DNA from: SAR324 cluster bacterium
Lineage (GTDB): Bacteria; SAR324; XYD2-FULL-50-16
Reading direction: 5' to 3'
DNA: 64,000 nt
Assembly (NCBI GenBank): GCA_028282825.1
Contig: JANQGZ010000013.1
Coordinates: 35,586 to 99,585 of the forward strand
Shown: positions 27,149 to 64,000 of the stretch, piece after piece
How positions within the stretch are numbered: the stretch's first letter is position 1
Layout: each line of letters opens with the position of its first letter
Notes under the pieces: generated by a model
Told to the model about the DNA's origin: nothing
Database searches by the model: none
The model's input: the letters and a program-made list of their open reading frames with translations, nothing else
Program-made: the position numbers and the translations under genes

Positions 27149-27441
27149 TATTCCTCCTCGGCCACCATGTTAATACATCCGGTAAAACATTCCTGTGCGC
27201 AGATACCACAACCCTTGCAGTAGTACAGGTCAGCCTCAAAAAAACTATCTTCCGTTTTTAAAATGGCCATATCAGGACAGAAAATGTAGCAAACACCACA
27301 TTTTATACACTTACTCTTGTCGACAACCGGTCTTAATGATCTCCAGTCACCAGTTTTATATTCCTTACCGGAACCGGGTTGGCTTATGGTGAAGCCAACT
27401 TCCAAATCTTTCCATCCGGGTTCTTTTGGGGTAGTTGTCAC
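27148..27441 (-). CDS. porD: 2-oxoacid:ferredoxin oxidoreductase delta subunit (2x[4Fe-4S])
   Basis: TGDWRSLRP, CIKCGVCYIFCP and YCKGCGICAQEC. Confidence 0.93.
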   Translation of the reverse strand: MTTTPKEPGWKDLEVGFTISQPGSGKEYKTGDWRSLRPVVDKSKCIKCGVCYIFCPDMAILKTEDSFFEADLYYCKGCGICAQECFTGCINMVAEEE

Positions 27442-27512
27442 GTTTTCTCCTATGAAACTTCAGCTTAAAAGCAGGAAAGTGTTGAAAACTTGGTTTTAAT
27501 TAAGCTGCTATC

Positions 27513-28091
27513 TTAGGCTGGAACAGCAGCAATCGATTTATCGAAATCGGCATAGTCTGTCTCTTTATATGCTCGTTTCAATGTTCCTATGTTTTTTTCC
27601 GCTATTTTGCCAAAACGCTCTTTAAAAGGGGTCACCATATCTTCCACAGTGATAAAATCTTTCATCTTAAGAAGAGCACCAATCATAGTTGTATTGGTAA
27701 TTGGCAAACCCAATTCTTCCATGGCGATTTTGGTTGCATTGACGGAAGCAAAACAGTTACCGATTTTAAGTTCCTGCTGAAGCTCTTTTCCTGAATATTT
27801 GGAATTGGCTACAACAACACCATCCTCTTTAATACCGGCTGCAATATCAACCAAGCGTAAAATTGACGGATCCAATACCAATACAACATCCGGATGGTAA
27901 ACCATTGTCCGGGTTCTGATCGGCTTATCATCAATCCTTAAAAAAGCGGTAACCGGTGCACCCCTTCTTTCCGGACCAAAACTTGGAAATGCTTGCGCGT
28001 ATTTCCCTTTGTTAATGGCTGCAATGGCGAGCAGTTCAGCTGATGTTACAGCTCCCTGGCCTCCCCGGCCATGTAATCTGATTTCAATCAT
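27513..28091 (-). CDS. porC: 2-oxoacid:ferredoxin oxidoreductase gamma subunit
   Basis: EIRLHGRGGQGAVT and FGPERRGAPV motifs. Start moved to ATG 28091. Confidence 0.93.
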   Translation of the reverse strand: MIEIRLHGRGGQGAVTSAELLAIAAINKGKYAQAFPSFGPERRGAPVTAFLRIDDKPIRTRTMVYHPDVVLVLDPSILRLVDIAAGIKEDGVVVANSKYSGKELQQELKIGNCFASVNATKIAMEELGLPITNTTMIGALLKMKDFITVEDMVTPFKERFGKIAEKNIGTLKRAYKETDYADFDKSIAAVPA

Positions 28092-28911
28092 GCTTCTTAA
28101 CCAATCTATCAGCAAACAATTGTCTCTCGCACAATAAACCTATGCCCTCGAAATTGCCTGCCTTGTTTTTTAAAAATGAATTGGAACGGACTGAATTGAT
28201 CTAATAACCAACCAATAAGTGATTTACTGATTAATTGGAAGGAATAAATCTATCTGACTGTTGCATTTTGATACAATCAGCAATTGTGATGCCACAGCCA
28301 AAACTACAAAAAATTAGATCTTATTTTTCAACAAGTTAACCAAAGTTCGTTTTTTACATCATCGCATTTTTCACGAGAGTATTCTCATTATTGAGATATT
28401 TGTCAATACGCAAAACTGGGAAATATCGACTCCATTTTGTTTTGGATAGGGATTCAACACTCTGTTATTATTTGTTTTTACTCCTAATGGTCTTAGAAAA
28501 ATCAACAGGATTTCAATAATAAAAAACCAACTTCAATAAATTTTCCCTTTGATTTTAGAAAGTTACAATTTTAAGCTTACGACTCAATTCGATTTTCTTG
28601 AGATATTTATCATTCAAATCCAGTTAAATTGCTGCGGCATTATAGCTAAATAATCTTGAGATTGACAAATAGAATTTTATGTCAGCTTGAGGTATTCAAT
28701 TTCAATGTTGATCTTGCCAGAGCATTTGGTTTCAAAAATGTGCCATTAGAGTTGCTATTTTGTTAGAGTTGGTAGCTGTTTTATTGAACAAAACCTAAAA
28801 GTTAATATTCAATAGCCAGGGATTTGAAATCCTTTTAATATAAAACGGGTTATTGTTATGTCCAAATTGAGTGGTTACAACTAGAGAATAAAAATTCAAA
28901 TTAGATCGCAA

Positions 28912-29601
28912 ATGGAAGAATTGAAAGAAAAGTCCGATTATGTATCGTTCATTAAATCAGCCCAGAATAAATCGGATCAGACCGAATGCAAGCGTTGCTG
29001 TACATGTTGCGCAAAAGGAGGCCCTGCCCTGCATAAAGAAGATTTGGATTTGATTCAATCAGGTAAATTACATGGCAGGTTTTTGTTTACCATCCGTGAG
29101 GGGGAACCAGCCAAAGACAATGTCAAAGGAGGTTTGGTTCAAGCCGATACCGACATTATTAAGATCAAGTCAAAAGATGGAACAGATGCTTGTTTGTACG
29201 CAAATTTTACAAACAATCAATGTAGTATATATGAGGACAGACCCATTGAATGCAAGACATTAAAATGCTGGGACACGGCTAAGATTGAAGCATTGTATAA
29301 TAAAAACAGGTTAACAAGAAAAGATATCATTGGAGGAATCCAAGGATTATGGGAACTGGTTGAAGAACATCAGCAAAAATGCTCGTTTTCCAAAGTGAAA
29401 CAGATTATTGAGGAAGCCAAGGGAAAGATTGAGGGGCAAGCTTTGAAGCAACTACTGGAGATAGTGCAATACGACATTTCTATTCGAACCTTGGTGTTAG
29501 AAAAAACAGATACGGATCCAAATCTGATTCCCTTTCTCTTTGGAACCCCTATGCAGTCCATATTGAGGAAGTTGGGAATTGAATTCAAACAGCGTTCTTA
29601 A
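28912..29601 (+). CDS. YkgJ family (CxxCxxCC) cysteine-cluster protein
   Basis: CKRCCTCC...C...CSIYEDRPIEC. Confidence 0.85.
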   Translation: MEELKEKSDYVSFIKSAQNKSDQTECKRCCTCCAKGGPALHKEDLDLIQSGKLHGRFLFTIREGEPAKDNVKGGLVQADTDIIKIKSKDGTDACLYANFTNNQCSIYEDRPIECKTLKCWDTAKIEALYNKNRLTRKDIIGGIQGLWELVEEHQQKCSFSKVKQIIEEAKGKIEGQALKQLLEIVQYDISIRTLVLEKTDTDPNLIPFLFGTPMQSILRKLGIEFKQRS

Positions 29602-29629
29602 CGTAAATAATACATGTTTATATTAATTG

Positions 29630-30745
29630 ATTAACCAACTTTCCGGGTTTTTAAGATATTTATTAATTAGGTTGGTACTACTTTTGTATTTCCCGCTCAG
29701 TCTATAGTCTTCCTGACAGATGAAACAATTCACAACGAATTTACAGTGCCCCCATAAATCCAGCTTTGATACTGGTTCAATGCACTACTCGTTGGTTGAA
29801 ACTTGCATTAGTGATTTATAAAGACTATAAAATGCATACCAACGCGCATGTTAAGGTGATCGATCAATTTGGCAATTTGTTTGTATCGTGGATTCATTGA
29901 TTGCAACCAAAGTGCAAAAAGAGTCTGATCGTCATAAATAATAGATAGTTATTTGACAAATTAATATCAAATAAAGGGTTGATTTTCGAATAATGGTCTG
30001 ATAAACCTCTTTGTCAAAGGAGGTTAAAAAGGGGAAAGCCTTTAAAAACAGCCTTTTTCATGGTTGTTCCAGATCAATTTTTTAATCTCTTTAAGGTTTA
30101 TCAAAACAAAAAGGCCCAATAGTCTACTAGGCATACTAGGTGATTGACCTTGGAAAGGGTATTTAATGGTAATTAAGTTAAATCAGTCACTTGACCAGAG
30201 TTTCCTATTTGTAGATTTAAAAAACGATGCATTAGAGTTGATATTTCTAATTAAATAACATAGCATCGCCTTTTATTTGGGTTAATGAAGAGAACAACAG
30301 ATTGTGGGAGTTTAACCAGCGGTCTTTCTTTCGTCGTTAGTTTTTAACAATCCAATTTGTTTAGGTTCTTAGGCACTACCTGATCAGTCAGTTTGACTTT
30401 TTCGTTGAAGTTATAGGATTGAGTTTGGTAGGCTGCTGAATACAACAGCGATTGAAGCATAATTTGCTGTTACACGATTCACCGACATCCCGTTGAACTT
30501 CCAACGTGAAGGCCGGGAAAGAGTGAAACTGGCAGGCTAACTGGAGACGATATTTTCAAATAAGTTTATTACTCTCCTTTCTTTTTGGTACATATCACCG
30601 GTAAGTCTGTTGGTAAAAATGAAACGCTTTGCCAGCGTATTCAATTATCGCTTGGAACAAGAAAGCTTGTTCCGGGGGATTTTTCAAAAATGTCTCTTTG
30701 GTCATGCTTAGAGGCAAGGTTAGTTTTTATAAAAACTAAACATAA
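29630..30745 (+). ncRNA. Candidate large structured RNA or very long structured 5' leader (not assignable to a known family)
   Basis: No ORF of 60 aa or more across 1.16 kb. Many nested helices, several with G-U pairs in the + orientation (see findings). Confidence 0.5.
30720..30739. promoter_or_regulatory. Perfect 20-bp palindrome just upstream of the porin RBS
   Basis: TTAGTTTTTATAAAAACTAA is its own reverse complement; AAGGAG RBS follows. Confidence 0.6.
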
Positions 30746-56454: not shown

Positions 56455-59400
56455 ATGTCGCCTAAGCAAGACAAAAAAATCAAAGAATTACATTCACGAA
56501 TTCAAGAGATCCCAATAGCCATAGTCGGGATGTCAGCTATTTTCCCGGAATCAAAAAATTTACAGGCATATTGGGACAATATTGTCAAAGAGGTCGACTG
56601 TATCATCGATGTTCCTGAAACCCGCTGGAATTTGGAAGACTACTATGATCCTGATCCCGAAAAAGAAGACAAAACCTATTGTAAACGTGGCGGATTTATT
56701 CCTGAGATAGATTTTGATCCAATGGAATTCGGCCTTCCCCCCAATATTCTGGAAGTTACCGATGTTCACCAGCTCCTTTCTCTTGTTTTGGCGAAGGAGG
56801 TATTGCGAGATGGCGGATATGAAAACGCCTCCGACGAATTAAGACAAAATATCGGTGTCATCCTGGGTGTTGGTGGTGGGCAGAAGATGATGATACCACT
56901 GGTTTCCAGGCTTCAATACCCTGTTTGGGAACGGGTGTTGAAGAACGCAGGTGTTTCCGATGGCGATACCTCAAAAATCGTTGAAAAAATTAAAAAAGCA
57001 TATGTTGGATGGGAAGAAAACGCCTTCCCGGGCGCATTGGGCAATGTTATTGCCGGCAGAATAGCCAATAGACTGGATTTAGGCGGTACAAACAGCGTTG
57101 TAGATGCAGCGTGTGCGAGCTCTCTCAGTGGTATTCGCATGGCAATCAGCGAGTTGCTGGAATACAGAGCTGACATGATGATCACAGGTGGGGTAGACAC
57201 CGATAACTCACCCTACATGTATCTATGCTTCAGCAAAACCCAGGCTTTCACAGCTGCCGATAAATCAACCCCATTTAGTGCTAATTCCGACGGTATGATC
57301 ATGGGCGAAGGTATCGGGATGCTGTTGTTAAAACGATTGAAAGATGCCGAGCGAGATAACGATCGGATTTATGCTGTCATCAAAGGAATGGGATCTTCCA
57401 GCGATGGAAAATTCAAGAGTATTTATGCTCCCAGGGCCAAAGGCCAGGAATTGGCCCTTAAACGTGCTTATAGAGACGCTGCAATAGATCCGGGCACTAT
57501 CGGTTTGCTGGAAGCTCACGGAACGGGTACTGCTGCCGGTGATTTGGCTGAAGTAACGGCTTTAAAAAACTTCTTTTCCCAACAGGACAAGGAAAAGCAA
57601 CATATCGCCATGGGGAGCGTTAAATCACAAATCGGTCATACCAAAAATGCCGCCGGTGCCGCCGGAATAATCAAAATGGCGCTCTCCCTGTATCATAAGA
57701 CCCTTCCAGCCACTATCAATATTGATGAGCCAAACCGGGATCTTGATCTTGAAAATTCACCCTTCTTTTTAAATACCAAAGTAAGACCCTGGTTCCATTA
57801 CTCTGATAAACATCCCAGACGAGCCGGTCTTAGTGCGTTTGGTTTTGGGGGCACCAATTTTCACTATATTCTGGAAGAACATCAATCTAAAGCGGAAGGC
57901 AACTACCGAATGCATCAGGTCTCATATCCGGTTATTTTGAATGCTAAAACAATCGATGAATTAGTTGCTGCCTGCAAGGAAACCACCGCGCTGTTAAGCG
58001 ACAAAAAGGCCGACCTAAAACTGGCGCATTTAGTTGATGAACAAAAGAATGCAAAGATACCTCAATCAAATGCCCGACTGGGATTTGTAGCAGTAAACGC
58101 CAAGGAAGCCGTTGATTTTCTGACAAAAGCAATTGAAAAATTGGAGTCAGAGCCTGATGCAGAGGCCTGGAATACACGAAAAGGTTTGTATTTTCAAAAG
58201 AAGGGAATCGATCCCAAAGGCAAGGTGGTAGCCCTTTTTGCTGGGCAGGGATCACCCTATCTGAACATGGGAAAAGAACTGATTAATAATTTCCCCATAT
58301 TGATGAAAAATCAGCAGTTTATGGATCGATTGTTTATTGAGGACAACCGACCGCCACTATCCTCGATTCTTTATCCGCGACCGGTGTTTGACAAAAAAAC
58401 CGCGAAGCAGCAGGAAAAGGAGTTAAATTTAACTCAAAACGCGCAACCTTCCATTGGTGTTTTTAGCGCCGGACAATACCAGATTCTCAATCAAGCCGGC
58501 TTTAAACCTGACTTCACGGCAGGGCACAGCTTTGGTGAGTTAACCGCACTTTGGGCGGCAGGCGTTCTCAACGACGAGGATTATTTTAAGCTTGCCAAAG
58601 CCAGAGGGAAAGCCATGGCCGCCCCGGATGATCCTAATTTTGATGCCGGTGCCATGGTGGCGGTTATGGGAGATGTTAAAAACCTTGCAGATGATATCAA
58701 AGATTTCAAGGGGGTGACCATTGCCAACTATAACTCAAAGAGCCAGGTCGTTATTGCAGGCCCCACGGAAGAAGTAATAAAAGCGCAAGAAGCAATTAAG
58801 GATAAATATCGAACAATACTATTAGGAGTTTCTGCAGCCTTTCACACCGAGTTGGTAGGACATGCCCAGAAACCGTTTGCAGAAGATATTGAAAAAGCAA
58901 GTTTCAAAAAACCGGCGTGTAAAGTGTATTCCAATGCTTCAGCCAAACCTTATCCGCAAACACCAAAATCGATTCAAAAAACCTTAAAGGATCATATCCT
59001 TAACTCAGTCCAGTTCAAACAGGAAATAGAAAATATATACGATGATGGTGGCAGGATTTTTGTAGAATTCGGGCCTCAAAGCATTCTAACCCGACTGGTA
59101 GACAATATTTTAGAAGGGAAATCTTATATATCTGTGGCGCTAAACGCAAATGCAAAAAAAGAGAGCGATCGTCAATTTAGAGAAGGTATTGTCAAACTCA
59201 AAGTGGCCGGTCTTTCTTTATCCGATTTCGACCCCTATCAATATAAGCCCGCTGTTTCGGACAAGAAGAAAAATGCGCTTACTCTGAAAATCAGTGGAAC
59301 CAATTATGTGAGTGAGAAAACCAGAAGAGTGTTTGAAGATGCCTTACAGGATGGCTTTAAGATTAAGCAGGCTGAAGCAGTAACCAGTCTGACGACTCAA

Positions 59401-60912
59401 AACAATCCCCAAAAACCCATAATGAGTAATTCAGAAAACGAAACAAACAAAAAAGTGTCAGTGACACCGCAAGGTGATAGTCTGACATATGCGATGCAGA
59501 GTCTGGAAAGAGGACTGGCAAACTTTTACAATCACCAGAATGAAACATTGCGTATTCACGAGCAGTTCCTGAATAATCAATCGGAATATTCCAGAAGTTT
59601 CTTCCAGATTATGCAGCAACAGGCTCAAACCGGAGCTCCTACGTTGAGCAAGGATGTGTCGCAAAGTATAGGTCAATTTCACTCTCACCAGGCCGAAACC
59701 TTACGTGTACATGAGCAGTATCTAAGGCATCAAACAGAATACTCGAAGCATTCATTTGAACTGATCAGACAGCAACAGGCGGCTTTTACCGGTGGTTCTC
59801 AAATAGCAGCACCCCAGTCCGTGACCATCACAGATTATCAACCGCCTGCTTACCCGGCTCCGACCCCACCTAAAATAGAACAAATTAAACCCATTACACC
59901 GCAGCCCGTTCAACCGGCAGCAACACCACCTGCTCAACCAGTTCCTCCTGCGCAGACTGTTGAAGAGCCGGTAGTTGAATCGATCAGTGCTGATACGTTG
60001 ACCAAGGCTTTGTTGGAGGTGGTTGCTGAAAAAACGGGTTACCAGTCCGACATGTTGGAATTAAGCATGGACATGGAGGCAGATCTTGGTATCGATTCCA
60101 TCAAGCGTGTTGAAATCCTGAACGGCATCCAGGAACAATTACCCGAACTGCCTCAGCTTAACCCGGAAGAATTGGCAGAACTCAGAACACTGGAACAGAT
60201 CGCAGACTATATGAAGACTCACGCGGGTGGATTTGAACCCGCAAAATCACAACCGGAACCGGAACCACAGGTAGCCCAGGGGCCTGCTCCTGCAGCTGAC
60301 AGGAATGGATTTGTTGGTGTTTTGCTGAATGTAATCAGTGAAAAAACCGGCTATCAGGCCGATATGCTTGAAATGGATATGGATATGGAAGCAGACCTGG
60401 GAATCGATTCGATTAAACGCGTCGAAATCCTGAACGGGTTGCAGGAACAAATGCCGGATATGCCATCTGTCAATCCGGAAGAACTTGCAGAATTAAGGAC
60501 ATTACAGCAAATTGCAGACTACGTGATGGGCAAATCTGTGATAGAGGAAGCTTCCGCTCCCGTGCAATCTGCTCCACAAGCTGATCAGACCAGTGGACTG
60601 GAAATATTGACTAAAGCCTTATTGGAAGTTGTCAGCGAAAAAACAGGATATCTGGAAGATATGCTTGAGCTTTCCATGGACCTGGAAGCGGACCTTGGCA
60701 TTGACTCCATTAAAAGGGTGGAGATTTTAAACGGTATTCAGGAAAAGCTACCGGATATGCCGGAGACAAACCCCGAAGAGCTTGCTGAACTGCGTACCTT
60801 GGAACAGATTGTTAATAAAATGATTCAGGCTGGAAGTCCGATCACTGCGGCTAAAACTGAAAATGTAAAAAAAAAACAAGTAATCGCCAACACGGCATCG
60901 ATCGCAGGTTAG
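56455..60912 (+). CDS. pfaA: PfaA/HglE-like iterative PKS, KS-MAT-ACPx3 part
   Basis: DAACASS, EAHGTGT, GHTK, GHSFGE (AT), AAFH and three LGIDSIKRVEIL ACP motifs. Confidence 0.9.
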   Translation: MSPKQDKKIKELHSRIQEIPIAIVGMSAIFPESKNLQAYWDNIVKEVDCIIDVPETRWNLEDYYDPDPEKEDKTYCKRGGFIPEIDFDPMEFGLPPNILEVTDVHQLLSLVLAKEVLRDGGYENASDELRQNIGVILGVGGGQKMMIPLVSRLQYPVWERVLKNAGVSDGDTSKIVEKIKKAYVGWEENAFPGALGNVIAGRIANRLDLGGTNSVVDAACASSLSGIRMAISELLEYRADMMITGGVDTDNSPYMYLCFSKTQAFTAADKSTPFSANSDGMIMGEGIGMLLLKRLKDAERDNDRIYAVIKGMGSSSDGKFKSIYAPRAKGQELALKRAYRDAAIDPGTIGLLEAHGTGTAAGDLAEVTALKNFFSQQDKEKQHIAMGSVKSQIGHTKNAAGAAGIIKMALSLYHKTLPATINIDEPNRDLDLENSPFFLNTKVRPWFHYSDKHPRRAGLSAFGFGGTNFHYILEEHQSKAEGNYRMHQVSYPVILNAKTIDELVAACKETTALLSDKKADLKLAHLVDEQKNAKIPQSNARLGFVAVNAKEAVDFLTKAIEKLESEPDAEAWNTRKGLYFQKKGIDPKGKVVALFAGQGSPYLNMGKELINNFPILMKNQQFMDRLFIEDNRPPLSSILYPRPVFDKKTAKQQEKELNLTQNAQPSIGVFSAGQYQILNQAGFKPDFTAGHSFGELTALWAAGVLNDEDYFKLAKARGKAMAAPDDPNFDAGAMVAVMGDVKNLADDIKDFKGVTIANYNSKSQVVIAGPTEEVIKAQEAIKDKYRTILLGVSAAFHTELVGHAQKPFAEDIEKASFKKPACKVYSNASAKPYPQTPKSIQKTLKDHILNSVQFKQEIENIYDDGGRIFVEFGPQSILTRLVDNILEGKSYISVALNANAKKESDRQFREGIVKLKVAGLSLSDFDPYQYKPAVSDKKKNALTLKISGTNYVSEKTRRVFEDALQDGFKIKQAEAVTSLTTQNNPQKPIMSNSENETNKKVSVTPQGDSLTYAMQSLERGLANFYNHQNETLRIHEQFLNNQSEYSRSFFQIMQQQAQTGAPTLSKDVSQSIGQFHSHQAETLRVHEQYLRHQTEYSKHSFELIRQQQAAFTGGSQIAAPQSVTITDYQPPAYPAPTPPKIEQIKPITPQPVQPAATPPAQPVPPAQTVEEPVVESISADTLTKALLEVVAEKTGYQSDMLELSMDMEADLGIDSIKRVEILNGIQEQLPELPQLNPEELAELRTLEQIADYMKTHAGGFEPAKSQPEPEPQVAQGPAPAADRNGFVGVLLNVISEKTGYQADMLEMDMDMEADLGIDSIKRVEILNGLQEQMPDMPSVNPEELAELRTLQQIADYVMGKSVIEEASAPVQSAPQADQTSGLEILTKALLEVVSEKTGYLEDMLELSMDLEADLGIDSIKRVEILNGIQEKLPDMPETNPEELAELRTLEQIVNKMIQAGSPITAAKTENVKKKQVIANTASIAG
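59998..60830 (+). repeat. Three tandem ACP-domain repeats
   Basis: EKTGY..DMLE..MDxEADLGIDSIKRVEILNG..PEELAELRTL repeated three times (Ser codons at 60097, 60409, 60706). Confidence 0.92.
60867..60876 (+). other. A10 homopolymer, candidate slippage / -1 frameshift site
   Basis: GTA AAA AAA AAA C lies in the overlap of the 0 frame (stop at 60912) and the -1 frame (open from 60861). Confidence 0.65.
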
Positions 60913-63350
60913 TTAAATCTATCCCACTTGCAAGGCCGGACAGTTCTGCTGTCCGGTTCCCTTCTGAACACATTTGTCTGATTACCGACGATGGTACTTC
61001 ACTGACAGCTAACGTTGCTAAAACCCTCAATCAACTGGGTTGGAGCAAAGTGGTTGTTTTGGAATTTCCTGCTTCCATTGTGCCCCAATCCGGGAGGCCG
61101 GATAACCTTGACAAAGCCGTTCTTTCAGACACCAAGGAAGAAACACTTATTCAGGTGCTTTCTGATACCAAGAAAACATATGGATCGATTGGAGGATTCG
61201 TTCATCTTCATCCGGTAAATGACAAACCATCCGGAATTGATTCTGTCTTTAAGCATTCTGAAAAAGAGATTCTCAAAACGGTCTTTTTCCTGGCCAAACA
61301 TCTCAAAAACGAATTGGTAGAGGCCTCTCAATCCGGCCGCAGCTGTTTTCTATCGCTGACTCGAATGAATGGCAAGTTGGGTTTTGCTGACCCTTCCGCT
61401 TACAGTGTGATCGCAGGTGGACTTTCGGGATTGATAAAAACAGTCCGGATCGAATGGGGTTCTGTTTTTTGCCGGTCTCTTGACTTTGAACCAAAAGCAT
61501 CGCATCAGTTCATCATGAATTCCTTGAAAGATGAACTGGTTGATCCTGATTTGCGATTAACAGAAATTGCTTACTCCACCTCAGGTCGTTCTACCTTATC
61601 GGCTGATGTAGAGAATTTCGACATTGAGCAGATCGCCACCGAAGCTATCGACAGCAGTTCCGTATTCCTGGTAGCAGGTGGTGCAAAAGGCGTAACAGCA
61701 TCTTGTATCAAGCAGCTGGCTCAGCGTTTCCAACCTTCATTTATACTTTTGGGAAGAAGTGATAACTCGATGCCGGAACCGGATTGGAGCCGTGGGGTCG
61801 ATGACGAAACGGAGCTTAAAATGCGTTGCATGGAAGCATTCAAAGCTGAGGGGGAGAAGCCCACACCTGTAAAAATTACCAATCGATTAAAGCCGATTCT
61901 CGCTCAAAGAGAAATCAACCAAACCATTTCCGACCTTCAGGCTGCGGGTTCCACAGTTGAATATTTCAGTGCCGATATTCTGGATACAGCGAGTCTTAAA
62001 AAGAAACTACAGGTAGTAGTAAAAAACCTTGGCAATATTACCGGTATTGTCCATGGCGCTGGCATCTTGGCCGATAAGCTTATCACGGAAAAAACTGAAA
62101 AAGACTATCAAATGGTGTTTGATACCAAAGTCGAAGGCTTGCAGTCTTTGATTCAGGCTGTCGACAATAACAAGTTAAAACATTTGGTATTGTTTTCATC
62201 AGCAGCCGGATTTTACGGCAATGAAGCACAATCAGATTATGCTGTTGCCAACGAGGTCTTGAATAAATTTGCCCATCATTTCAAGCAAAAGCATGCCGGA
62301 TGTCACGTGGTTTCCTTTAATTGGGGACCTTGGGATGGAGGCATGGTAACGCCGCAATTGAAGAGGATGTTTGAAGAAAGAAAGATCAAGGTGATACCAC
62401 CTGAAGTTGGATCATCCATCATGGCGGATGAACTGGCACTCAAAGATAAATCCGCTGTTCAGCTTGTAGTAGGGAGTTCCATGGTAATTCCGAGGGATGC
62501 CGGGTCGGAACTTTGTTCATACAATCTTTCCCGCAACCTGAGCCTGGAAGATAATCCTTTTCTAACTCACCACGTCATAGGCAACGAGCCTGTTTTACCC
62601 ATAATTTGTGCACTTTCCTGGATGGCAGACAGTTGCGAAAAACTGTACCCGGGTTATCAATTTGTCGCTTGCAAAGAAACCAAGGTTTTAAAGGGTATTG
62701 TCTTCAATGAATCCGCACCTCAGGAATATCAGGTTACAATCGATGAGCTGGATAAGTCGGAACCGGGAAGGATTTTGTTTCAGGTTCAAGTATCAAGTGA
62801 AAAAGCCGGCAAAACCGTTTTTCACTACAGTTCGAAAATTCGCCTTGCCCGGAAACATCAGCAACCGCTTTCATTAAACAGCTTCAATTTGAATGATTCA
62901 ACGGTAAAAGCAGGAGCTGATTTCTACTCTGACGGTACCCTCTTTCATGATCCAATTTTCCAGATTGTAACCCGACAACAAAATATTGACAAAAAGCGTT
63001 TAACCCTGGCTTGTCAAGCGCCAAAACTGACTCGTCGTCAAAAAGGCCAATTCCACTCTGATACCTTCAACTCATTTGCCGATGATGTGTTATTGCAGGC
63101 GCTTTTAATTTGGGTTCGCAACAGCTTTCAGGCAGCCAGTTTGCCATTGAGCATTGGCGAAGGAAATCTCTACGCGACTACACCTTTTGATGAGCCGTTT
63201 TTTGTCACCATGGATGTAACTTCAGCATCGGAAAACAAACTGGTAGCAACTGTTTGCAGCCATGATGAACAAGGGAGAGTTTATACTCAATTAAAGAACG
63301 CAGAAGTGATTATCAGCAAAGCCTTGAATGATAAGTTCATGAAAAACTAG
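60876..63350 (+). CDS. PfaA C-terminal KR-DH part, encoded in the -1 frame
   Basis: Frame is open from 60861 with HICLITDDGT upstream of the annotated GTG 61050; GGAKGVT, HGAGILAD, FSSAAG..Y, WGPWDGGM and HVIGNEPVLP (DH). Confidence 0.85.
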   Translation, partial: TSNRQHGIDRRLVKSIPLARPDSSAVRFPSEHICLITDDGTSLTANVAKTLNQLGWSKVVVLEFPASIVPQSGRPDNLDKAVLSDTKEETLIQVLSDTKKTYGSIGGFVHLHPVNDKPSGIDSVFKHSEKEILKTVFFLAKHLKNELVEASQSGRSCFLSLTRMNGKLGFADPSAYSVIAGGLSGLIKTVRIEWGSVFCRSLDFEPKASHQFIMNSLKDELVDPDLRLTEIAYSTSGRSTLSADVENFDIEQIATEAIDSSSVFLVAGGAKGVTASCIKQLAQRFQPSFILLGRSDNSMPEPDWSRGVDDETELKMRCMEAFKAEGEKPTPVKITNRLKPILAQREINQTISDLQAAGSTVEYFSADILDTASLKKKLQVVVKNLGNITGIVHGAGILADKLITEKTEKDYQMVFDTKVEGLQSLIQAVDNNKLKHLVLFSSAAGFYGNEAQSDYAVANEVLNKFAHHFKQKHAGCHVVSFNWGPWDGGMVTPQLKRMFEERKIKVIPPEVGSSIMADELALKDKSAVQLVVGSSMVIPRDAGSELCSYNLSRNLSLEDNPFLTHHVIGNEPVLPIICALSWMADSCEKLYPGYQFVACKETKVLKGIVFNESAPQEYQVTIDELDKSEPGRILFQVQVSSEKAGKTVFHYSSKIRLARKHQQPLSLNSFNLNDSTVKAGADFYSDGTLFHDPIFQIVTRQQNIDKKRLTLACQAPKLTRRQKGQFHSDTFNSFADDVLLQALLIWVRNSFQAASLPLSIGEGNLYATTPFDEPFFVTMDVTSASENKLVATVCSHDEQGRVYTQLKNAEVIISKALNDKFMKN

Positions 63351-63680: not shown

Positions 63681-64000
63681 GTGAGCGTTGGTAAAATGAC
63701 AGGTCCCAAAAAAGCTGCAATCTTATTGCTGGCTTTAGGAGAAGAAGGGGCTTCTGAAATTTTAAAAAACCTGGAAGATCGTGAAATCCAGCAAGTCGGA
63801 TACTACATGGCCCGGTTTACCGATGTATCTCCTGAGGAATTGGATAATGTATTGGAGGAATTCTATCGGAAAGCCGCTATGCAAGATCAAGGCGTTACCA
63901 TTAATGCCAGTGGTGACTTTGTTAAAAACGCACTGACCAAGGCATTGGGAGATGACAAGGCAAAAACCCTGGTGGATAATCTGCAGTCCTCTGCCGATGA
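63681..64000 (+). CDS. fliG: Flagellar motor switch protein FliG, N-terminal part (runs off the window)
   Basis: GTG behind GAGGA; reads MSVGKMTGPKKAAILLLALGEEGASEILKNLEDREIQ...VLEEF...ALTKALGDDKA. Not in the supplied ORF track. Confidence 0.88.
   Translation, partial: MSVGKMTGPKKAAILLLALGEEGASEILKNLEDREIQQVGYYMARFTDVSPEELDNVLEEFYRKAAMQDQGVTINASGDFVKNALTKALGDDKAKTLVDNLQSSAD

Follow-up and report, generated by a model that had tools for sequence, protein, structure and literature searches.

To our knowledge, few non-mobile bacterial genes are known to employ programmed frameshifting or polymerase slippage. Among the closest described cases is dnaX. According to the available text of a 2016 review of recoding, RNA polymerase slippage is efficient in bacteria on nine A's or T's and in this way gives the dnaX gene of Thermus thermophilus two products; Escherichia coli dnaX relies on a -1 ribosomal frameshift at A_AAA_AAG, and 'reversed' forms of dnaX need the shift to make the long product (PMC5009743). 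Also close are the 'type D' clusters for polyunsaturated fatty acid (PUFA) synthases. The accessible parts of the respective papers place the ketoreductase (KR) region of Aureispira marina and Psychroflexus torquis apart from pfaA (PMC4882568), draw the P. torquis cluster as pfaA1A2BCD (PMC3914696) and report low productivity when the A. marina genes, A to E, were expressed in E. coli (PMC5067506). Here we analyse a PfaA-like synthase gene in a 64,000-nucleotide (nt) stretch of DNA from a SAR324 cluster bacterium (GenBank assembly GCA_028282825.1, contig JANQGZ010000013.1, positions 35,586 to 99,585 of the forward strand; hereafter the window). A run of ten A's (A10) at the boundary between its tandem acyl carrier proteins (ACPs) and its KR coincides with a change to the -1 reading frame. 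Comparison with homologous loci makes it very probable that this boundary is a site of programmed recoding, whether by RNA polymerase slippage or by ribosomal frameshifting, at which one gene would give rise to a 1485-residue and an approximately 2298-residue product.

An A10 run at the carrier protein-ketoreductase boundary

The coordinates of the features are collected in Table 1. In the zero frame the codons at 60865-60879 are GTA AAA AAA AAA CAA, GTA occupying 60865-60867, and the run holds two in-phase A_AAA_AAA heptamers (60867-60873 and 60870-60876). The zero-frame stop follows 33 nt from the slip site. In the -1 frame there is no stop from 60861, immediately after a TGA, until 63348-63350, and the product of this frame opens with a Lys tract followed by conserved HGIDRR and LPxPD-like motifs.

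Pfam matches on the 1485-aa zero-frame open reading frame (ORF) comprised a ketosynthase (KS; PF00109 and PF02801) with its C-terminal extension (PF16197), an acyltransferase (AT; PF00698) and three tandem ACPs (PF00550 in three copies). The -1 frame carried KR and polyketide synthase (PKS) dehydratase (DH) domains, arranged after the shift as a linker strand, the structural subdomain of the KR, its catalytic subdomain (∼61662-62336) and the DH (∼62529-63308). The PfaA-type order of KS, AT, tandem ACPs, KR and PKS-type DH is therefore complete only across both frames, as judged by Pfam and, for the KR fold, by a structural model and Foldseek. With 1474 residues up to and including the third Lys and 824 more beginning at the Thr codon (60876-60878), the total is 2298 residues. 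A sequence-only reading of the window had proposed that recoding here gives both a KR-less and a full-length synthase. Its statements on the sequence (the A10, the frames, the stop at 60912, the GTG at 61050, the 2298 residues and an inverted repeat) all proved correct when the sequence was read again.

A run of this length is unremarkable in this genome, and its significance stems from comparison with relatives. In the 7.97-Mb genome (G000; 42.4% GC) A or T runs of at least ten number 49 against ∼44 expected from composition, and AAA accounts for 69% of the Lys codons in long ORFs. Genome-wide, the sense-strand runs inside stop-to-stop frames of at least 300 aa comprise four A10 and 52 A9, some of which might be further slippage sites.

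The frame break in homologous loci

Searching contigs with a single KR N-terminal protein as query returned no relative, and an alignment of KR N-termini (A2) was then used as the query. The survey consisted of 20 loci of window-related genomes and the best 80 of 552 tblastn-confirmed matches to this alignment. For each locus the last ACP and the KR N-terminus were placed by tblastn and their frames compared. The 100 loci gave 98 usable rows, after exclusion of one locus with no KR (L017) and one with no ACP (L068). Three pairs represented the same DNA (L004 and L021, L013 and L049, L014 and L027), leaving 95 distinct loci with the window counted.

The KR lay in the -1 frame in 69 of the 95 distinct loci, in frame in 21 and in the +1 frame in 5 (72, 21 and 5 of the 98 usable rows), proportions that describe the closest relatives of the query and are no estimate for all PfaA-like genes. 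The -1 loci came from Saprospiraceae/Lewinellaceae, other Bacteroidota, the window's own family and class (under public labels that include 'bacterium', 'uncultured Pseudomonadota', 'Deltaproteobacteria' and 'Proteobacteria') and one Anaerolineae metagenome-assembled genome (MAG). In-frame loci were mainly from Gammaproteobacteria, Desulfobacterales and Hydrogenedentota, and the +1 loci from three Nostoc, one Vasconcelosia and one Saprospiraceae MAG.

Within the stretch shared by both frames, an in-phase X_XXY_YYZ heptamer was present in all 72 of the -1 rows (69 distinct loci). The motif is a run of at least nine A's in 57 of the distinct loci, A_AAA_AAG in 9, A7 in 2 and G_GGA_AAG in 1. A test of phase is empty for runs of at least nine, which hold a heptamer in any phase, and informative for the 12 short motifs; all 12 were in phase, and they are spread over several separate clades of the KR tree described below. 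The overlap is often just 21 nt: a -1-frame stop directly precedes the run, the zero-frame stop follows it by 0-15 nt, and in 29 of the 72 rows the KR frame opens no more than 6 nt from the heptamer. Base composition does not erase the run: it is kept across loci of 60-63% GC, among them L012 and L018 (63% GC; A9 and A10), and a locus of 70% GC (L040) has A7. Every -1 member of the window's own family clade carries A9-A11, and two uncultured Aureispira loci (L046 and L084; A10/A9) also have the KR in the -1 frame.

Long runs were found outside the -1 loci as well. A9-A12 are present in 7 of the 21 in-frame loci, and A9 or A10 stands at the same junction in all five +1 loci. Alternative-frame stops in the in-frame, run-bearing loci lie 1-11 codons past the run, which would fit the two-product logic of dnaX; as this spacing is near chance, it was not used as evidence. 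In the four cyanobacterial loci (L033, L094, L097 and L099; three Nostoc and one Vasconcelosia) A9 or A10 lies at the ACP/KR junction (∼2449-2460 of each locus) with the KR in +1. A -1 ribosomal shift is impossible as a way of joining these halves, which would require an mRNA lacking one A or carrying two extra, or a +1 or -2 shift. The sequence-only reading had set the split gene beside cyanobacteria in which the KR is separately encoded; that contrast loses force with these four loci, whose membership in hgl clusters was not checked, as the run is present at that junction in them too, with the KR in +1. The fifth +1 locus, a Saprospiraceae MAG (L044; A9 at ∼663), is alone in an otherwise -1 clade and may result from misassembly or be a genuine variant rescuable solely by polymerase slippage.

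Taken together, the 69 of 95 loci, the in-phase heptamers and a conserved, structured -1-frame protein that begins upstream of any start codon strongly support recoding into a KR-less and a full-length synthase.

Route of the proposed frame change

Under the recoding proposal, standard decoding would end at 60912 and give a KS-AT-ACP3 protein of 1485 aa. A fraction of products would enter the -1 frame at the A10, with reading resuming at ACA (60876-60878) after the third Lys codon, to give a KS-AT-ACP3-KR-DH protein of ∼2298 aa. The dominant route would be RNA polymerase slippage on the A10, producing mRNAs with one extra A. A -1 slip of the ribosome on the in-phase A_AAA_AAA, read by an apparently sole tRNA-Lys(UUU), would contribute; both routes would yield the same protein. 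The site would thereby set the ratio of a carrier-rich short subunit to the full-length subunit, akin to tau and gamma of dnaX.

We place the chance that RNA polymerase slippage is the major route in the window at about even. It is indicated because 57 of the 69 -1 loci keep at least nine A's though the ribosome needs seven, because some in-frame and all +1 loci, where a -1 ribosomal shift is useless or impossible, likewise retain it, and because the -1 members of the family clade combine A9-A11 throughout with no conserved 3' structure and, in the window, a rather distant zero-frame stop. The run thus lies on the coding strand, is at least nine A's long and is conserved whatever the frame relation, as expected for transcriptional slippage. 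Features of -1 frameshifting are present too, namely the in-phase heptamer in the overlap and a downstream frame that has no start of its own and shows conservation from the shift site onwards.

That -1 ribosomal frameshifting on A_AAA_AAA is the main or only route, with polymerase slippage negligible and the products the same, is a possible but somewhat doubtful variant of the recoding proposal. Every -1 locus has an in-phase heptamer, and the motifs of 12 distinct loci, all in phase, are too short for efficient polymerase slippage. These 12, among them the classic dnaX heptamer A_AAA_AAG with a stop 0-3 nt behind it, point to ribosomal shifting in their lineages. In addition, tRNA-Lys(UUU) is the only tRNA-Lys found among the 41 tRNAs of the assembly, which is 92% complete; according to the available text of the review, it is a sole tRNA-Lys(UUU) that renders the E. 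coli dnaX site shifty (PMC5009743). Against this variant, the A9-A11 of the window's family are longer than the ribosome needs, the +1 loci with A9 or A10 are unable to use a -1 shift, and with the zero-frame stop 33 nt away no stimulation by a stop codon would be expected.

Stimulatory elements were sought around the slip site. For the window we found no conserved 3' stem-loop or pseudoknot at 5-9 nt, no evident Shine-Dalgarno (SD)-like sequence 5' of the site and no adjacent stop; in other clades a stop follows the motif at 0-9 nt. RNAalifold, run from the slip site to +100 nt on eight clade members, returned 0 shared pairs. Folds of single sequences gave differing small hairpins with no common register, which often used the CCGGAC codons of the conserved Pro-Asp. 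As there is neither a conserved 3' structure nor an SD-like 5' element, a ribosomal -1 shift on A_AAA_AAA alone may be inefficient. Across the family we would describe the site as a slippery Lys tract with lineage-specific routes.

The sequence-only reading had also pointed to an 8-bp hairpin downstream. The inverted repeat is present, ∼60 nt 3' of the slip site and 24 nt past the zero-frame stop, with one mismatch in a species of the same genus (G004). As a conserved stimulator it was rejected, being out of reach, on the 3' side, of a ribosome positioned on the run and unconserved among the eight relatives. Contigs of two metagenome runs (X4 and X5, below) have T>C at 60944 in the hairpin loop and C>T at 60953 in the 3' arm, the latter turning a G-C pair into G-U.

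The ketoreductase and its possible start codons

In an arrangement like that of the published 'type D' clusters, where A. marina and P. torquis have a KR region distinct from pfaA (PMC4882568; 'pfaA1A2BCD' in PMC3914696, as far as their available text goes), KR-DH would be translated from an internal start, either GTG 61050 or a non-canonical codon, and the A-run would encode merely a Lys-rich tail. The ORF from this GTG spans 61050-63350, and a GGAG lies 4 nt ahead of it. The GGAG is, however, part of conserved Gly-Trp-Ser codons, and from 60861 to 61050 the KR frame contains no ATG, GTG or TTG.

The region upstream of the GTG appears to belong to the KR. The -1-frame translation could be aligned across clades from the Lys tract onward, conservation and fold starting ∼11 residues after the run (alignments A2 and A4, the latter of 49 sequences) and, in the window, ahead of the stop of the zero-frame ORF. 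Its conserved features are a His..Ile..Arg-Lys/Arg..Val strand, the LPxPD motif and a CLITDDGT-like strand. The zero-frame tails end after 1-11 codons and differ among clades. In a short-chain dehydrogenase/reductase (SDR) of known structure (6zzq_A), residue 9, in the first strand, aligns with residue 38 of the -1-frame protein, and the catalytic half of the -1-frame KR matches the KR of PksJ. An AlphaFold2 model of window 60870-62525, built with alignment A4, had a mean pLDDT of 89.8 and a pTM of 0.91. Strands at residues 12-20 and 35-39 and a helix at 45-55 (block pLDDT 86-96) precede model residue 61, which corresponds to GTG 61050. The whole model was superposed by Foldseek on the two-subdomain PKS ketoreductases 5d2e, 5ktk, 4j1q and 2fr0 with target-normalised TM scores of 0.76-0.81. 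Because the SDR alignment, the model and Foldseek agree on these upstream elements, initiation at GTG 61050 would be predicted to decapitate the KR, with loss of two strands and one helix of its structural subdomain.

Among the 72 -1 rows, the first ATG, GTG or TTG comes too late for the conserved strand in 34, and the first ATG too late in 65. In the other 38, mostly Saprospiraceae with a longer Thr/Ser/Pro-rich linker, a possible GTG, TTG or ATG lies upstream of the conserved strand, and by the start-codon test alone independent initiation may take place in those rows. No sigma-70-like promoter pattern occurs in 60400-61400 of the window; the one terminator-like site there, on the minus strand, is within shuffle expectation.

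Independent initiation of the KR would have counted against the sequence-only reading, and the window offers no start that would preserve the KR fold. With the 60 residues encoded in 60861-61050 conserved and folding as part of the KR in the model, and with the KR frame opening exactly at a slippery motif in many lineages and the motif always in phase, two independently translated genes are unlikely for this window, and we give that arrangement little credence.

The run in independent assemblies

Logan contigs were obtained from the coral-metagenome runs X1, X3 (record 7), X4 (record 9) and X5 (record 12), which belong to three studies; X1 may be the source of the window DNA. Contigs from all four runs span the A10 with no gaps. 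The X4 strain is ∼1.9% diverged (17 substitutions in 899 bases) yet has the same run length. At 83% DNA identity over 1201 bases, G004, the different species of the same genus, matches the window exactly in its A10 and shares both ORFs, but differs at nearby third-codon positions. In the sequences compared, run length and frame are accordingly fixed among strains, species and families.

These comparisons bear on two suggestions made from the sequence alone. A true A11 would have reduced the frame break to an assembly error; the independent contigs give A10, and the run and the break are common to the close homologues. A phase-variable switch is contradicted by the same length in the contigs of four runs, the diverged strain included, and in the sister species: neither variation in run length among close strains nor ON and OFF alleles were found, the comparison being one of contigs, which mask minority run lengths. 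Although homopolymers are error-prone and mutable and the data are metagenome assemblies, a DNA-level explanation (an error in sequencing or assembly, a contingency tract or a decaying pseudogene) is very unlikely in view of the constant length in three studies, the same frame state in 69 of 95 distinct loci from independent assemblies, a +1 cyanobacterial form that includes isolates, a frame state clustered by clade rather than scattered, and conserved domains intact in both halves.

In contigs of three runs a joint that 'goes back', with 161 letters between, was seen at 60300-60450. It mirrors the near-identical tandem ACP repeats, and assemblies may be uncertain or may vary in their ACP count.

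Inheritance of the frame state

A quick maximum-likelihood tree of the KR region was built from 96 rows, L013 and L015 being excluded as too short. The -1 state required 9 changes on this tree against a mean of 23.2 when labels were shuffled, and none of 500 shuffles was as low; as kin share labels, the result indicates long-term inheritance and is not a statistical proof. In the Bacteroidota clade 50 of 53 rows were -1, in the clade of the window's family 13 of 17, and in the gammaproteobacterial/Desulfobacterales clade all 13 were in frame. Within the Bacteroidota clade the motif alternates among A9, A10, A_AAA_AAG and G_GGA_AAG, and frame relation and phase stay constant. The synthase on a contig labelled Candidatus Gracilibacteria (L028) groups with Nostoc in the tree, and its label may reflect mis-binning.

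A wider interpretation is that the ACP/KR boundary of PfaA/HglE-type synthases is an ancient, cross-phylum recoding switch, repeatedly re-implemented as in dnaX: by polymerase slippage on A9-A11, by a -1 ribosomal shift on A_AAA_AAG or G_GGA_AAG, in the +1 form in cyanobacteria and as an in-frame run. It would fix how much KR-less carrier subunit is made relative to the full-length one. In our judgement this generalization is evenly poised between right and wrong. Were it true, the 'separate KR gene' of the type D PUFA clusters of Aureispira and Psychroflexus would be the frameshifted continuation of pfaA, with a bearing on the low heterologous yields reported for such clusters.

Genomic context

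The window synthase lies outside any pfa cluster. On its 5' side are genes for NDK and inositol monophosphatase, and on its 3' side genes for FliG, a RadA-like ATPase, a response regulator with an HD domain and others. The FliG gene directly downstream (window 63681-64000; L101:767-1780) is complete, and the organism is therefore probably flagellated. Two PfaD-family enoyl reductase genes scored above the curated cut-off on other contigs (C108 and C90), unlinked to the window synthase. KS-type matches adjoin the C108 copy and look like a pfaC-like gene; many other KS loci exist in the genome. One of them, at ∼15300-62300 of contig C79 (minus strand), has at least 12 KS-type tblastn matches on one strand and constitutes a very large PKS locus.

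Table 1. Positions of the synthase features in the window and of PfaD-family genes elsewhere in the genome (G000).
Feature	Position	Strand	Evidence
Zero-frame ORF, 1485 aa, predicted short product	56455..60912	+	ORF list, translation, Pfam
Candidate A10 slip site	60867..60876	+	same A10 in G004; no indel in contigs from four runs
Window for the frame change, 54-nt overlap	60858..60912	+	-1-frame TGA 60858-60860 to zero-frame stop TAG 60910-60912
-1-frame coding region after the proposed shift, 824 aa and stop	60876..63350	+	translation, Pfam, alignments A2 and A4, AlphaFold2 model, Foldseek
First ATG/GTG/TTG of the KR frame (GTG), inside a predicted strand	61050..61052	+	ORF list, SDR alignment, AlphaFold2 model
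8-bp hairpin, not conserved	60936..60956 (arms 60936-60943 and 60949-60956)	+	sequence; mismatch in G004; RNAalifold
PfaD-family genes and adjoining KS-type matches	G000:C108:3817-12293 and 27409-29904; G000:C90:157318-158619		

Discussion

The A10 of the window appears to be a conserved recoding site whose mechanism is of a known kind, and recoding in its gene family is apparently undescribed. The literature searched contained no account of recoding in pfaA, hglE or PUFA synthase genes; it included the first 300,000 characters of the 2016 review (PMC5009743), the GeneTack survey and a survey of heptamers in E. coli (PMC3711429 and PMC4066793); the supplementary tables of these surveys, outside that search, might list one.

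Several points weigh against recoding as the explanation. Beside the restriction of the survey to close relatives of the query and the masking of minority run lengths in contigs, most loci are from short-read MAGs. Neither a shared RNA structure nor an evident SD-like element accompanies the slip site, the tRNA-Lys count comes from an incomplete assembly, and 38 of the -1 rows leave room for a separate start. The literature, as far as the available text of the type D papers goes, treats the KR part as a separate gene, and the Aureispira genes gave product in E. coli (PMC4882568, PMC5067506). We infer, rather than observe, that shifting occurs, and the same holds for its route and ratio.

If programmed recoding is the correct explanation, the recoded non-mobile genes would gain a new family through a conserved example in a widespread lipid/polyketide megasynthase, and each 'split' pfaA or hglE-like gene would be annotated as a single recoded gene, neither as a gene pair nor as a pseudogene. 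Recoding also raises the question whether the ratio of KR-less KS-AT-ACP protein to full-length protein tunes the synthase. On the practical side, clusters resembling type D are cloned for the production of polyunsaturated fatty acids, and the mode of KR expression could matter where yield is low, as described for Aureispira genes in E. coli in the accessible part of PMC5067506.

With the type D clusters the window gene shares its domain order and the split between tandem ACPs and KR. In contrast to them it does not adjoin pfaC or pfaD, and the type D papers, in their available portions, treat the parts as separate genes and make no mention of a slippery site (PMC4882568, PMC3914696, PMC5067506).

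The likeness to dnaX, as described in the available text of the review (PMC5009743), would lie in the mechanism. In both, one gene would yield a short and a long product at a slippery tract of Lys codons, and lineages swap in-frame runs, out-of-frame runs and A_AAA_AAG closely followed by a stop; the tRNA-Lys(UUU) context, so far as the 92%-complete assembly goes, is that of E. coli dnaX. The differences are that the synthase is a megasynthase and not a polymerase subunit, that no SD-like or stem-loop stimulator was found for it in the window, that +1 configurations occur, and that in most lineages its long form would need the shift.

A further parallel is tssM of Citrobacter rodentium, a large non-mobile gene broken by a poly-A tract at which slippage leads to two length variants (PMC4256274). 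According to the available text of that paper, slippage in tssM rescues a gene that is prematurely interrupted in that species, whereas the break in the synthase is kept across families and phyla.

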